A DNA stretch of 16,055 nucleotides from the NCBI GenBank assembly GCA_013152315.1, contig JAADGP010000048.1, forward strand, positions 1 through 16,055, written 5' to 3'. Every line of letters starts with the position of its first letter. Positions within the stretch are counted from its first letter, which is position 1. Made by a program: the position numbers and the translations under genes. This DNA is from FCB group bacterium. GTDB taxonomy: Bacteria; Fidelibacterota; Marinisomatia; Marinisomatales; JAADGP01. This document shows, in pieces, positions 4,192-8,772 of this stretch. Under the pieces are notes generated by a model. That model searched no databases and was not told the origin of the DNA. It worked only from the letters and a program-made list of their open reading frames with translations.

Positions 4192-4893
4192 TTATTGCTG
4201 CTTCACCAGGGCGGCATTAATAATAATCTCCACGCGACGGTTTAAATCACGATCGGCCGTGGAAGTATTGGCACGGACGGGGCGGTATTCTCCATAACCG
4301 GAAACAGCAAACATTGCTTCCGGCAAGCGTGTAAACTTTTGCAGCATGCGCATGACCACCTGAGCGCGGGCCGCGCTTAATTCCCAATTGTCCCGATAAT
4401 CCGATCCTTCGATAATCGGAATATTATCCGTGTACCCTTCCACCCGAATTTCCACTTTCCACTCCAAACCGTTCTTTACGAACTCGTCAATCCAGGAACG
4501 CAATTTCGGATTTTTTTCGAGGTGCAATATCCCCAGGTCGCGAATGGCATCGGCAATGCTTTTTATATGCGTTTCCAGTTCGGGGTTCGGATCCGCTTTC
4601 CCGGGATCAAACATTTTTTTATCATGAATGACTATCCGGACGCCTTTTGAATCATGCCCGATTACCAATCCTTCTATCCCGCGCTGGCTGATGGTTTCAG
4701 TAAGTTCATCCACCGCGTTTGACAACTGTTCCGATACCCAGGCGTGTACCTTTGAGATTTCACCGGCTCTTATGGAAATCATCATGATAAAGAATGTAAT
4801 CAGTAACGTAATCATATCTCCGTAACTCAACAGCCAACTGCCGTGGGTTTTCACGGAACCCACATTATTCTTGTCGATTTTAACTTTGAACAC
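4192..4893 (-). CDS. MotB/PomB-like stator subunit with OmpA-like peptidoglycan-binding domain (module 1, second MotB paralog, channel Asp retained)
   Basis: The N-terminal TM motif SWLLSYGDMITLLITFFIMM aligns to E. coli MotB [21 protein letters not shown], with Asp encoded at 4816-4818 (GAT). The OmpA-like C-terminus contains VEGYTDNIP, NWELSAARAQVV and NRRVEIII. The track start is a GTG at 4893, overlapping the upstream gene by 14 nt. Alternative GTG starts at 4863 and 4854 cannot be excluded. Confidence 0.85.
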   Translation of the reverse strand: MFKVKIDKNNVGSVKTHGSWLLSYGDMITLLITFFIMMISIRAGEISKVHAWVSEQLSNAVDELTETISQRGIEGLVIGHDSKGVRIVIHDKKMFDPGKADPNPELETHIKSIADAIRDLGILHLEKNPKLRSWIDEFVKNGLEWKVEIRVEGYTDNIPIIEGSDYRDNWELSAARAQVVMRMLQKFTRLPEAMFAVSGYGEYRPVRANTSTADRDLNRRVEIIINAALVKQQ

Positions 4894-5587
4894 GATCGGT
4901 AATTTCTATTAACTGCACATCAATATATATTTCAACCCGGCGGTTTTCATCCAGCTTTTCCCGGCTGCGGAGGGGATGAAAAGAGCCGTAGCCCGCCAGG
5001 GAAAAATATTCTTTGGGCAGGGCTGTTTTCCATTGTAAAAATTTCATCACCTGGTAAGAACGCGCCAAACTTAAATCCCAATTGGTTTTAAACCGACCGG
5101 AAAGAATCGGTAAATAATCGGTGTGTCCCTCCACCGTTAGTTCGATGGCAACTTTTTTTCCCGATCTTTTAAGGGCTTCGATAATCGGCCGGTAAGTTTG
5201 TTGAATTTTTTCGAGCTCTAACTGCTTAATAATATTGGCGGTCGTTTCCAAAAAACCGACGAAGAGAGGATTGATATTGTCATCTTCCGACGGAAACATC
5301 GGTTGTTCGCCGATTTTAGAGGGAATAAGCAACTTAATTCCTTTGGTCCCGGTATTTTCGACATACAGCCAGTCCAACCGTTGGCTTTCCTTGTCTTCCA
5401 AGATCCTTGAATACAGAATACTTTTCACACGTTCCGAGAATTTAAACGTTGTCGCCGCCTCATGCTCGGCCCGGGTCACGAAAAGAATGAAGAAAGCCAG
5501 GACGGCGGTCAGAAGCGAGGCGTAGGTCATCATCCAACCGGCCCCTCCGGACTGAGACCGATTGGCGTTCGCTATTTTACCGGCCAT
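4880..5587 (-). CDS. MotB-like OmpA-domain protein lacking the conserved channel aspartate (module 1, first MotB paralog)
   Basis: The TM motif GWMMTYASLLTAVLAFFILF has Ser (TCG, complement of 5516-5518) where MotB/PomB carry the essential Asp. The OmpA-like domain is intact: VEGHTDYLP, NWDLSLARSYQV, NRRVEIYI. I prefer the ATG at 5587 (MAGKIANANRSQSGGAGW...) over the track's TTG at 5623. That start gives an 11-nt overlap with the motA-like stop. Confidence 0.8.
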   Translation of the reverse strand: MAGKIANANRSQSGGAGWMMTYASLLTAVLAFFILFVTRAEHEAATTFKFSERVKSILYSRILEDKESQRLDWLYVENTGTKGIKLLIPSKIGEQPMFPSEDDNINPLFVGFLETTANIIKQLELEKIQQTYRPIIEALKRSGKKVAIELTVEGHTDYLPILSGRFKTNWDLSLARSYQVMKFLQWKTALPKEYFSLAGYGSFHPLRSREKLDENRRVEIYIDVQLIEITDRVQS

Positions 5588-6407
5588 TTGATTCCCGGTG
5601 TAAAGCTCGTGTATCCTTATCAAGGAATGTCAGCAGTTTTTCCTCCATAATTACCGGGTGTTCCTTGCTGTGGATACTTAAAATACCCGCCAGAATTATT
5701 TCATTAACGTGTGTCTCAAACGCTGTGCGACCTTTTAATTTTCCAGCAATGGGAATAAAAATCAGGTTCGCCAGAAGAACACCATAGAAAGTAGTAACCA
5801 AAGCGATACCCATTCCGTCCAACAATTGTCCCATCGAGTTCTCCATTTGTGATGCATATCCCGCCACGGAGCTTGACTGCCCCTGTTGTGTCATCATCAG
5901 GATCAACCCCATTACCGTCCCCAGCAATCCGAAGGCCGGGGCGTAATTTCCCATATTATAGAACATTTCCTGTCCGCTCTGATGCCTTTTAATCATGTTG
6001 TCCAGTTCGTTTTCCAGGAAACTCCGTAACTTGCCGGCATCTTTTTCGAGGATTGCATTTTCCAGCCCCATCCGTAAAAAATTATTTTCAATTTTCGGCA
6101 ATAACTTTTCAATCGTGACAAAACCTTTCTTGCGGGCGATTTGGCTTAACTCAACCAATTGGTTAATGATTTTAACCGCCGAATCATCGTTTTTTCCACC
6201 GAAAGCCTTTCCGGCAACCCGGAACATGCGCAACACGTTGGGCAGCGGATAATTAATCGCTGTGGCCGCCAGGGTTCCGCCTAATACAATAGCCACTCCC
6301 TGGATGTTGATAAAGGTTGATGGAATCATTTGGGTGTTCGGATCAAACATCCCAAACAGGATTAATCCCAACCCGATGATCAGACCAAAAACTGTTGCAA
6401 TATCCAT
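5577..6407 (-). CDS. MotA/PomA-type stator channel subunit (module 1)
   Basis: 276 aa with 4-TM MotA topology and a large cytoplasmic loop between TM2 and TM3. It carries YAPAFGLLGTVMGL (TM3 Pro motif), TTFYGVLLANLIFIPIAGKL (TM4 Pro motif) and ARKKGFVTIE, where R92 and E100 are spaced like PomA R88/E96 and MotA R90/E98. Confidence 0.88.
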   Translation of the reverse strand: MDIATVFGLIIGLGLILFGMFDPNTQMIPSTFINIQGVAIVLGGTLAATAINYPLPNVLRMFRVAGKAFGGKNDDSAVKIINQLVELSQIARKKGFVTIEKLLPKIENNFLRMGLENAILEKDAGKLRSFLENELDNMIKRHQSGQEMFYNMGNYAPAFGLLGTVMGLILMMTQQGQSSSVAGYASQMENSMGQLLDGMGIALVTTFYGVLLANLIFIPIAGKLKGRTAFETHVNEIILAGILSIHSKEHPVIMEEKLLTFLDKDTRALHRESNGR

Positions 6408-6638: not shown

Positions 6639-7223
6639 TTAAAATCCTAAAGTATAATAGACTTCCTCACCGGTCAATTTTGATTTGCAGATTAACTCTA
6701 AATTTCTGGGAGGCGTCTTAAAATCGAAAACCAGTTCGGCAACGATCTTTTTCAAAGGCCGGATAATCGCCAGGTTCTGATATTTCCCTTCAAAAGGATT
6801 TAATTCCCCACGGACTCCTCCGGAGCCGATTAATTTCACCATGGTCGTCGCCGAAAAATCAAAATCTTTCGTCAGATCACTGTTGGCTATTTCCAATTTG
6901 ATAAAAACCCTGTTCCCCTGTTTACGCGCGCTTAATAATGTAAACTTAACTTTATCGGCCAATTGCTCGGTTCCAACCGGGAAAGCCACCCGGCCGTCTT
7001 CCAGAGCCTCGACGGGAATATAAAATTCCATTGTTGCCTTAACATATTTCTTGCTGCGGTCCAATTCCAATTTTCGTACTGTTGCCCCGGGCTCAATCTG
7101 CCCGATGGCTTCCCCATCGTATGGCCGACTGTAAATCTCCGTACCGGACTTTACTTTCGTCTCCTGCCCGACAAGAATTCCCAATAAACCGATCCAGACC
7201 AACCTGCGAATACGCGGTGTCAT
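6639..7223 (-). CDS. Secreted or membrane-anchored protein of unknown function: N-terminal SH3b-like segment plus Ig-like (DUF4352-like) beta-sandwich; third gene of module 2
   Basis: Signal or anchor sequence MTPRIRRLVWIGLLGILVGQ. KVKSGTEIYSRPYDGEAIGQIEPGATVRKLE fits the bacterial SH3 pattern. VKFTLLSARKQGNRVFIKLEIANSDLTKDFDF...IRPLKKIVAELVFDF fits the DUF4352-type pattern. The start is 8 nt after the MotB stop on the same strand. Domain calls are by eye only. Confidence 0.5.
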   Translation of the reverse strand: MTPRIRRLVWIGLLGILVGQETKVKSGTEIYSRPYDGEAIGQIEPGATVRKLELDRSKKYVKATMEFYIPVEALEDGRVAFPVGTEQLADKVKFTLLSARKQGNRVFIKLEIANSDLTKDFDFSATTMVKLIGSGGVRGELNPFEGKYQNLAIIRPLKKIVAELVFDFKTPPRNLELICKSKLTGEEVYYTLGF

Positions 7224-7231
7224 TTTACTTT

Positions 7232-7963
7232 TTATCCTGTTACCGTATTGGTTTTCACAAACGCGTCGAGATAAATTTCCACGCGCCTGTTTTTAGCGCG
7301 GGCGTCTTCGATATCCAGCGGATTCTTACCAACAGCCTTTATATCGATGACGGGGCGGAACTCACCATATCCCATGGCGGAAAACTTTGATTCCTCAATT
7401 TGCGAAAACCGGCTTAATAATTTCACCACGTTTAAAGCCCTGGCCGTGGACAGGTCCCAATTGCTTTCGTATAAGGAATTCTTTGGTAATGGCAGATCGT
7501 CCGTATGTCCTTCACAGCGTATTTCAATATTCAGAAATCCTCCCCGTTTTTCAATTGCTTCCAAAAGGTTTTTGTAGCGCGGATCTTCGAATACCCGCAT
7601 AATTTTCGACACGCGGATAATCCCCCCGATTTGTTGCAGAAGGGGATATACATCCGGTTGTACTTCCGCATCCATGGATTTGAACAGCCGGCCGCTGGCC
7701 ATGGTAATTTTAACTCCTTTGGTAACCCGTTCGACGCGTACATAGGAAGATTCCACATTTTCTTTCAATTCCTTATATGTTTCATCCAAAAGCATATTGA
7801 TTACCCGATCAATGTGCTTCTCAGCATCATTCATGATTACCAGCAATAATATGAAAAAGGTCAATAACAAGGTTACCAGGTCAGCATAGGTTACCGCCCA
7901 GGCCGTACTTTTGGCCTTGGCCTCCTCGGCCGAAAGCCCTTCGTGGAGGACCGCCGTGGTCAC
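7232..7963 (-). CDS. MotB/PomB-like stator subunit with OmpA-like domain (module 2, channel Asp retained)
   Basis: The TM motif AWAVTYADLVTLLLTFFILLL has Asp encoded at 7880-7882 (GAC). The C-terminus contains CEGHTDDLP, NWDLSTARALNV and NRRVEIYL. The GTG start overlaps the upstream motA-like TGA stop (GTGA, 7960-7963), suggesting translational coupling. Confidence 0.87.
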   Translation of the reverse strand: MTTAVLHEGLSAEEAKAKSTAWAVTYADLVTLLLTFFILLLVIMNDAEKHIDRVINMLLDETYKELKENVESSYVRVERVTKGVKITMASGRLFKSMDAEVQPDVYPLLQQIGGIIRVSKIMRVFEDPRYKNLLEAIEKRGGFLNIEIRCEGHTDDLPLPKNSLYESNWDLSTARALNVVKLLSRFSQIEESKFSAMGYGEFRPVIDIKAVGKNPLDIEDARAKNRRVEIYLDAFVKTNTVTG

Positions 7964-8772
7964 TTTATTTCCTGCCGTTTACTTTGGGGAACAAAAGTCA
8001 TGAGTTTTTCCCGAATAAGGAGCGGATGTTCCTTGGCATGGATACTGATAATTCCCTCCACAATGATATTTTTCAACATCAGTTCCTCTTCGGATTTACG
8101 CTTTAACTTTCCTCCGATAGGCAGAAACACCAGATTGGACAACAACACACCGTAAAAAGTCGTAATCAGGGCCAGTCCCATGCCACTTAACAGCTCGGCG
8201 AATTTCTTGGCTACGTCAAATTCAATGGTATCGATGGTAGCTCCATTCCCACCGGAAAAATTATTCATCATTATAATCAATCCCATGACGGTCCCCAGCA
8301 TCCCGAAAGCCGGTGCATAAGCCCCCATGTAAAAGAAAATTTCCTGTCCGTTACTGTGGCGACGCACAATGTTGCTTAATTCCAAATTAAGGTAGGTACG
8401 GAGCCGCCCGGCATCGCGTTCGTTAATAGCCAGTTCAATCCCATTCCGCAAAAATTTGTTGCTGATCTTATCCAGATCAGCTTCTAAGGACATAATCCCC
8501 GATTTACGGGCCTTTTCCGCCTTCTCCACCAATTCGTCAATCCAGTTCTGATAACTGTAGTCCTCGTCGGTAAACACGTTTTTTAATACTTTAAACAGGC
8601 CTAATACGTTCTTAAGCGGATAGTTCACCAGCGTTGCCGCAAGGGTGCCGCCCAACACAATCATAATTGAATTGAAGCTGAAAAACCAATATAAATCACC
8701 GCCGCCACGCCAGACTCCGATACCAATAATGCCCAGACCGGCAAGCAAACCAATGGCTGTCCCAAAATCCAT
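7960..8772 (-). CDS. MotA/PomA-type stator channel subunit (module 2)
   Basis: 270 aa, clearly paralogous to 5577-6407 along its full length. Shared features include LGGTLAAT, YAPAFGMLGTVMGL, TTFYGVLLSNLVFLPIGGKL and ARKSGIMSLE (R89/E97). Confidence 0.88.
   Translation of the reverse strand: MDFGTAIGLLAGLGIIGIGVWRGGGDLYWFFSFNSIMIVLGGTLAATLVNYPLKNVLGLFKVLKNVFTDEDYSYQNWIDELVEKAEKARKSGIMSLEADLDKISNKFLRNGIELAINERDAGRLRTYLNLELSNIVRRHSNGQEIFFYMGAYAPAFGMLGTVMGLIIMMNNFSGGNGATIDTIEFDVAKKFAELLSGMGLALITTFYGVLLSNLVFLPIGGKLKRKSEEELMLKNIIVEGIISIHAKEHPLLIREKLMTFVPQSKRQEIK

Follow-up and report, generated by a model that had tools for sequence, protein, structure and literature searches.

Current models of the 5:2 rotary motors, among them MotAB, PomAB, ExbBD, TolQR and ZorAB, rely on a pair of equivalent Asp residues that bind and release ions by turns, and the channel Asp of the B subunit is treated as conserved in MotB, PomB, TolR and AglQ/S (PMC9389320). 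Here we describe a stator-like locus that departs from this premise. It lies on a contig of 16,055 nucleotides from a Marinimicrobia/Fidelibacterota bacterium deposited as 'FCB group' (GenBank assembly GCA_013152315.1, contig JAADGP010000048.1), the whole of which we refer to as the window. On the minus strand, a gene for a flagellar-type MotA protein, motA2 (276 residues, 5577–6407), is followed by two genes for MotB paralogues, motB′ (B′, 235 residues, 4880–5587) and motB2 (B2, 233 residues, 4192–4893). Among solved structures, MotA2 is most closely related to C. sporogenes MotA (6YSF/8UCS, E 7e-45) and PomA (8BRI, 4e-34). Direct reading of the third gene of this trio gives the expected channel Asp (Asp26, codon GAT at 4818–4816), whereas the second gene encodes Ser24 (TCG, 5516–5518) at the position of E. 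coli MotB Asp32. Our favoured reading, to which we give roughly even odds, is that B′ and B2 pair up as a heterodimeric axle within the MotA2 pentamer, which would leave the unit one ion-binding Asp.

An intact MotB paralogue without the channel Asp

The absence of the Asp was proposed in a sequence-only reading, made by a model from the DNA letters and their translated open reading frames (ORFs), and it is upheld by alignment. With phmmer, the B′ segment WMMTYAS is aligned with WLVPYAD of B. subtilis MotB (6YSL) and with WLATFSD of C. sporogenes MotB (6YSF), and Ser24 falls on the channel Asp of both structures. Likewise, when the profiles of 67 B′ relatives and 39 B2 relatives are aligned with each other, they are colinear along 231 columns (26% identity), and the B′ Ser comes to lie on the B2 Asp. 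The local sequence around the site is GAGWMMTYASLLTAVLAFFILFVT, with TCG read at 5518–5516. No alternative acidic residue occupies the channel position, as the transmembrane (TM) helix, GWMMTYASLLTAVLAFFILFVT, holds none, and the nearest one is Glu41 at its periplasmic end.

The remainder of B′ is intact, as the same reading had maintained from the TM helix and three sequence motifs. B′ scores above the Pfam cut-offs for both MotB_plug (PF13677, 27.1 bits against 24, covering the TM part only) and OmpA (PF00691, 34.7 bits against 27.2). The TM signature W..TY.x.LT..LAFF is conserved, with W18, T27, L30, A31, F32 and F33 practically invariant across two phyla, and few parts of the protein are as well conserved as this helix. 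The peptidoglycan-binding motifs GHTD (as EGHTD), NWDLSLAR and NRRVEI are all present and are invariant or nearly so in orthologues, and the invariant residues of the OmpA domain comprise G154, H155, D157, N169, L172, S173, R176, N215, R216, R217 and E219. AlphaFold2 models of B′ and B2 (predicted local distance difference test, pLDDT, 90.3 and 89.6), which are monomers and speak to architecture and not to pairing, share one architecture in which a long TM-plus-plug helix leads into an OmpA-like domain. In a Foldseek comparison with the PDB, B′ best matches the periplasmic domains of MotS, H. pylori MotB and PomB, with TM-scores to MotS and PomB of up to 0.72–0.82 when normalised by target length. 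Taken as a MotB-type B subunit, B′ therefore has the TM signature, the OmpA domain and the adjacency to motA, and lacks the ion-binding Asp.

A missing Asp, seen alone, might point to a decaying duplicate or to an error of assembly or sequencing at the Ser codon, but both possibilities are refuted by the orthologues. Measured against the closest of these, L010 (90% identical), the ratio of nonsynonymous to synonymous substitution rates (dN/dS) is 0.022 for motA2, 0.059 for B′ and 0.049 for B2, and pairwise values for B′ lie between 0.03 and 0.18, with B2 in the same range. The earlier judgement that B′ is no pseudogene is sustained by these values. The codon at the Asp site is TCT in L010, and non-Asp codons, among them TCN, AGY, GCN and GGY, come from 55 independent assemblies. 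ORFs are intact in 72 of the 72 other trio loci; 'stops inside' was flagged for four gammaproteobacterial B′ matches, and the two ORFs that were checked (L127 and L140) are intact.

Conservation of the trio and turnover at the Asp site

Among 5.8 billion proteins searched, about 90 B′ orthologues emerged at 36–90% identity, and all the named ones belong to Marinimicrobia/Fidelibacterota or to 'FCB group'. A scan of species-representative genomes found the motA–B′–B2 trio in 52 loci, 38 of them in Marinimicrobia-type metagenome-assembled genomes (MAGs) and 14 in gammaproteobacteria, where the carriers are Thiomicrospira, Thiomicrorhabdus or Piscirickettsiaceae. The latter include the cultured Thiomicrorhabdus arctica DSM 13458 (L057) and Thiomicrorhabdus sp. 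Milos-T2 (L047). Of 61 genomes sampled from the family of T. arctica, 51 have a B′ orthologue, and the full trio was found in all 20 that were retrieved. The total besides the window is 72 trio loci, 38 from Marinimicrobia and 34 from Thiomicrospiraceae-type gammaproteobacteria. Many of the loci come from MAGs, and some record titles are at odds with tree placement: the stator genes of MAGs labelled 'uncultured Lentisphaeria' (L014, L018, L020 and L030) or 'uncultured Francisella' (L049, L054, L058 and L072) fall inside the Marinimicrobia or Thiomicrospiraceae-type clades, and these taxonomic labels are probably wrong.

The order of the three genes does not vary. B2 lies directly after B′, with motA in front, in 72 of 72 other loci with enough downstream DNA, and at each locus neighbouring genes either touch or overlap. 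In the window, motA2 overlaps the start of B′ (ATG, 5587–5585) by 11 nucleotides (nt; 5577–5587), and the stop of B′ (4882–4880) overlaps the GTG start of B2 (4893) by 14 nt (4880–4893), as the sequence-only reading had seen. Elsewhere, the distance from the motA2 stop to the B′ Trp codon is 20–137 nt, and in 50 loci the B′ stop lies only 16–76 nt ahead of the TM Trp codon of B2, too close for B2 to have a promoter of its own. The suggestion that the three genes are made together thus finds its counterpart in one conserved, tightly packed operon, and the expected neighbourhood also holds, with every Asp-less copy adjoining an Asp-bearing B2.

B2 orthologues of at least 45% identity, sought in 301 Marinimicrobia genomes, lie on the same contigs as B′ loci in all those retrieved (20 of about 47). 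B2 orthologues without B′ were suspected among second-tier matches (35–39% identity), and these proved to belong to a different module, motA1–motB1, described below. A conserved fourth partner gene was also considered and ruled out, as the flanks differ among the window, T. arctica and a complete Marinimicrobia genome, G034: the window has enolase at the side of the trio, and T. arctica has glyQS, HAD and plsC on one side and MCP on the other. In G034, a protein with GAF and HD-GYP-type (HD_5) domains is encoded between a motAB–fliF–fliG cluster and the trio (L124, 10617–12305); it could provide a link to control by cyclic di-GMP, one that is not conserved elsewhere.

The two B genes differ sharply in what they tolerate at the channel site. 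Across 73 loci, the window included, B2 has Asp without exception (73/73), whereas B′ has Ser in 35, Ala in 14, Gly in 5, Thr in 1 and Asp in 18, such that 55 of the 73 are Asp-less and every residue seen is either small or Asp. When 1.84 billion cluster representatives were searched exhaustively with a profile, only 51 proteins reached E <= 1e-30. The 18 best full-length B′-family representatives, read at the site, are all Asp-less, and the Asp-bearing matches that rank after them are mostly B2- and motB1-like by their TM motifs, together with one B′ of the L076 type.

That last type belongs to a divergent Marinimicrobia motA–B–B trio (L076 and L077, 5190–7450) with Asp in both B copies. Its B′ copy stands at the base of the B′ clade, and its B2 copy is placed without resolution at the base of the B′+B2 group. 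When the B′ tree is rooted with B2, this trio branches first, and it may reflect the state before the Asp was lost. Among the remaining 51 rows of the tree, the Asp is found only in one nested Marinimicrobia clade. The sister of this clade has Ala (GCC) and the outgroups have Ser (TCN), and a one-step path from TCC through GCC to GAC is therefore open for regain of the Asp; a sub-clade inside it has Ser once more, now encoded by AGY. Whether the history is one of repeated loss or of loss and regain, the Asp site of B′ can vary freely within a protein that is otherwise conserved. Among the 34 gammaproteobacterial trios, L139 (G328:C1:1775500-1779200) is the sole one with Asp in B′ (WMMTFADVFTALLTFF), which would make it helpful for natural comparison.

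These states bear on the place of B′ relative to the MotA2 ring. B′ might lie outside it, as a membrane-anchored periplasmic scaffold that positions or activates A5(B2)2 in the manner of MotY, FliL and MotK/MotE-type accessories. Stator accessory proteins are common (PMC10954123, a study of the periplasmic MotK/MotE proteins and not of Asp-less MotB), and the intact peptidoglycan-binding motifs would suit such a role. However, a scaffold role agrees poorly with a TM helix that carries the full MotB signature and ranks with the best conserved parts of the protein, and a mid-membrane Asp, present or regained in 18 loci, would be strongly disfavoured in a lipid-exposed helix. The tolerance of B′ for Asp is hard to reconcile with such an environment, and we regard a position outside the ring as improbable.

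The origin of the pair can be read from a tree of all B-type proteins, in which the E. coli MotB sequence served as outgroup only. B′ and B2 fall into one group (support 89/96), within which B′ is a clade and so is B2, bar the divergent L076 copy; the group is nearest to motB1 and distant from both the canonical MotB of the same genome and E. coli MotB. On this phylogeny, B′ and B2 are sister paralogues. Gammaproteobacterial sequences group into a single clade next to Marinimicrobia in B′ and likewise in B2, with congruent internal topology, and reciprocal Marinimicrobia and gammaproteobacterial clades are seen in MotA2, B′ and B2 alike. The reciprocal clades in B′ and B2 imply that the duplication is older than the spread of the trio between phyla, and this spread must have included an ancient transfer of the whole operon.

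How the two B subunits may be used

An old tandem duplication of a motB gene gave rise to B′ and B2. B2 retained the ion-binding Asp, and B′, freed from the need for it, came to carry Ser, Ala, Gly or Thr and occasionally Asp, while keeping its MotB-type TM helix, plug-like helix and peptidoglycan-binding domain. From these patterns of sequence, conservation, selection, synteny and phylogeny we infer the pairing, its stoichiometry and a single-site ion cycle, as follows. With motA2, motB′ and motB2 co-translated as one operon, one B′ and one B2 would make up the dimeric axle in the MotA2 pentamer (A5:B′1:B2 1), in which B2 would supply the single ion-binding Asp and both B chains would anchor the unit to the cell wall. 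The Ser, Ala or Gly of B′ would, in this scheme, mimic a permanently neutral, protonated-like Asp. More tentatively, the trio may encode a natural asymmetric 5:1:1 stator, whose one ion-binding Asp would pass about 5 ions per revolution of the MotA ring instead of 10.

Several lines of evidence suggest that B′ and B2 are made and act together. They co-occur strictly, they are under equal purifying selection, and their gene junctions are tight; the Asp is always kept in B2 and usually lost in B′; the TM helix of B′ is constrained beyond what a simple anchor would need; and the B′ site admits nothing but small residues or Asp. Also in favour of a heterodimer, the two proteins form sister clades of congruent topology with the same predicted architecture, and MotA2 is of flagellar type with an invariant rotor-contact Glu, with fliG found in all five trio-bearing Marinimicrobia genomes tested.

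There are also observations that weigh against a heterodimer. The association of B′ with B2 or with MotA2 is one that we infer from sequence. The MotB1 and MotB2 proteins of Aquifex each work separately with MotA as chimeras (PMC4525482), and hence two B genes after one A gene need not mean a heterodimer. Furthermore, current 5:2 models use both Asp residues alternately (PMC9389320), and a single-site cycle would therefore need a revised mechanism; a second 36-degree step of the ring with one Asp is outside what these models explain. Finally, the Asp state of B′ was scanned for covariation with every column of MotA2 and B2. The top column outside B′ is residue 27 of B2 (window 4815–4813), directly after the Asp, which is Thr in 14 of 15 Asp-type Marinimicrobia loci, in none of 36 others, and also in L076/L077. 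No more than 2 independent pairs stand behind this signal (p = 0.5), L014 and L139 have an Asp in B′ without the Thr in B2, and the association of B2 Thr27 with a B′ Asp is suggestive but not significant, and so unsupported.

In the main alternative, B′ and B2 would instead serve as alternative partners of MotA2, with A5(B2)2 as the working stator and A5(B′)2 as a non-conducting unit that takes up sites at the rotor or the cell wall and acts as a brake, lock, placeholder or competitor for MotA2. Mutants of E. coli MotB at Asp32 are reportedly dominant-negative (Zhou et al. 1998, cited in PMC9389320), which would mean that Asp-less units can assemble and interfere. Aquifex offers a precedent for two B subunits that each pair with one MotA, and the strong purifying selection on B′ would fit a regulatory role equally well. 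This reading leaves unexplained that B′ lineages lose or gain the Asp with the protein otherwise unaltered; a regained Asp would destroy a 'dead' role. Constitutive 1:1 coupled translation with B2 at every locus would also be odd for a regulator. We thus consider a division of labour between two homodimers somewhat unlikely, and retain the B′/B2 heterodimer as the preferred reading.

As for the type of motor, the features of MotA2 and the separate canonical motAB by fliG lead us to predict that the trio is an accessory flagellar-type stator beside canonical motAB–fliG. MotA2 contains the motif ARKKGFVTIE (rotor contact), the prolines of YAPAFG and IFIPIAG, and the motifs PAFGLLGT and LVTTFYG. 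In 50 orthologues, E100 (equivalent to MotA E98) and G95 are invariant, and position 92 (equivalent to R90) is R or K in 43. Four TM helices, the charges equivalent to R90 and E98 and the prolines equivalent to P173 and P222, which mark the flagellar-type (FIT) MotA proteins, are all found. Compared with the C. sporogenes and Paenibacillus MotA structures, MotA2 has a 14-residue insertion in the periplasmic TM3–TM4 loop (approximately residues 183–196, window 5790–5860). The genome of the window has a fourth MotAB pair adjoining fliG on another contig; fliG is present in all five trio-bearing Marinimicrobia genomes tested, with a canonical motB about 3 kb away, and two or three additional motB genes occur in the Thiomicrorhabdus genomes.

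Independently of how the B subunits pair, the trio might not be a flagellar stator at all and might power another envelope process. In the window, T. arctica and G034 alike, it is encoded away from the flagellar gene cluster, and a canonical motAB adjoins fliG in every genome checked. Moreover, none of the A or B proteins of the window reaches the cut-off of a curated NCBIfam stator equivalog, the best scores against their cut-offs being 177/394 bits for MotA2 (MotP), 84/259 for B′ and 128/283 for B2 (MotD). On the other hand, MotA2 is nearest to flagellar MotA and PomA (E 1e-45 to 1e-34) and not to ExbB, TolQ or ZorA, and its E98-equivalent Glu is invariant and its R90-equivalent position largely basic. 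Both B′ and B2 also carry a plug-like helix and an expanded MotB-type OmpA domain, which are flagellar-type markers (PMC12505986), and the trio was not found in the MotB-less small Marinimicrobia genomes that were sampled. We consequently think a non-flagellar role unlikely.

The trio is one of two stator-like modules formed by six consecutive genes on the minus strand of the window. The second, also accessory, occupies 6639–8772 and consists of motA1 (7960–8772), motB1 (7232–7963), in which the Asp is present, and a gene for a 194-residue protein (6639–7223) with no Pfam or NCBIfam match. Pfam recognises MotA_ExbB in both A genes (86.4 bits for MotA2) and MotB_plug and OmpA in all three B genes (42.9 and 51.9 bits for B2), each above its gathering score. 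By eye, the TM3–TM4 loop insertion of MotA1 is longer than that of MotA2. The arrangement motA1–motB1–194-residue protein is a conserved three-gene module in more than 20 Marinimicrobia loci, where the third gene shows 34–54% identity, and its product may be a stator accessory.

The wider interest of the trio lies in the two-Asp premise, on which B′ represents an evolutionary experiment, namely a conserved natural unit with one axle subunit that lacks the Asp. If it is true that B′ and B2 share one MotA ring, then the motor works with one site, which would set limits on its step size, on its ion stoichiometry and on what the second Asp does. Should they not share a ring, B′ would be a stator that natural selection has kept in a non-conducting form, and such a motor regulator has yet to be described. 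Both outcomes are testable, with T. arctica DSM 13458 and Milos-T2 available as cultured, motile, non-pathogenic sulfur oxidisers.

Comparison with known stator units

In full-text searches of the literature we found no case of a MotB without the Asp being paired with one that carries it, and a 2025 phylogenetic survey of MotAB makes no mention of aspartate (PMC12505986). The trio nevertheless displays individual features of several described systems. Most similar are the canonical MotA5MotB2 and PomA5PomB2 units (6YSF, 6YSL, 6YKM and 8BRI): MotA2 is a close homologue of their A subunit (E 7e-45 to 6YSF), the A and B genes are adjacent, and both B proteins show the TM signature of MotB, a plug-like helix and an OmpA domain of the MotB type. 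In contrast to these units, the trio has two dissimilar B genes per A gene, of which B′ is Asp-less, and its proteins score below the NCBIfam equivalog cut-offs.

The gene order recalls the motA–motB1–motB2 operon of Aquifex aeolicus, a flagellated bacterium in which a single operon likewise places two motB genes behind one motA (Takekawa et al. 2015, PMC4525482). There, however, the TM regions of MotB1 and MotB2 are 97% identical and the proteins differ only in the periplasmic part (PMC4525482), whereas B′ and B2 are about 26% identical throughout. Nor does B′ appear suited to the Aquifex arrangement, as it lacks the channel Asp that it would need to function with MotA alone.

A second parallel is the AglR–AglQ–AglS gliding motor of Myxococcus, which likewise combines one MotA/TolQ-like protein with two different B-type proteins, and for which the choice between homo- and heterodimer is open (PMC9389320). 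Unlike B′ and B2, AglQ and AglS are TolR-like, have no OmpA domain and both keep the Asp, and AglR is of the non-flagellar type (PMC12505986). The closest match to the B′ site itself is provided by engineered MotB, in the Asp32 mutants and in C. jejuni MotB D22N, in which the channel Asp is exchanged for a neutral residue while folding and assembly are preserved (PMC9389320). Those substitutions are laboratory losses of function in the sole B subunit, whereas the residue in B′ is natural, maintained by selection and paired with an Asp-bearing partner.

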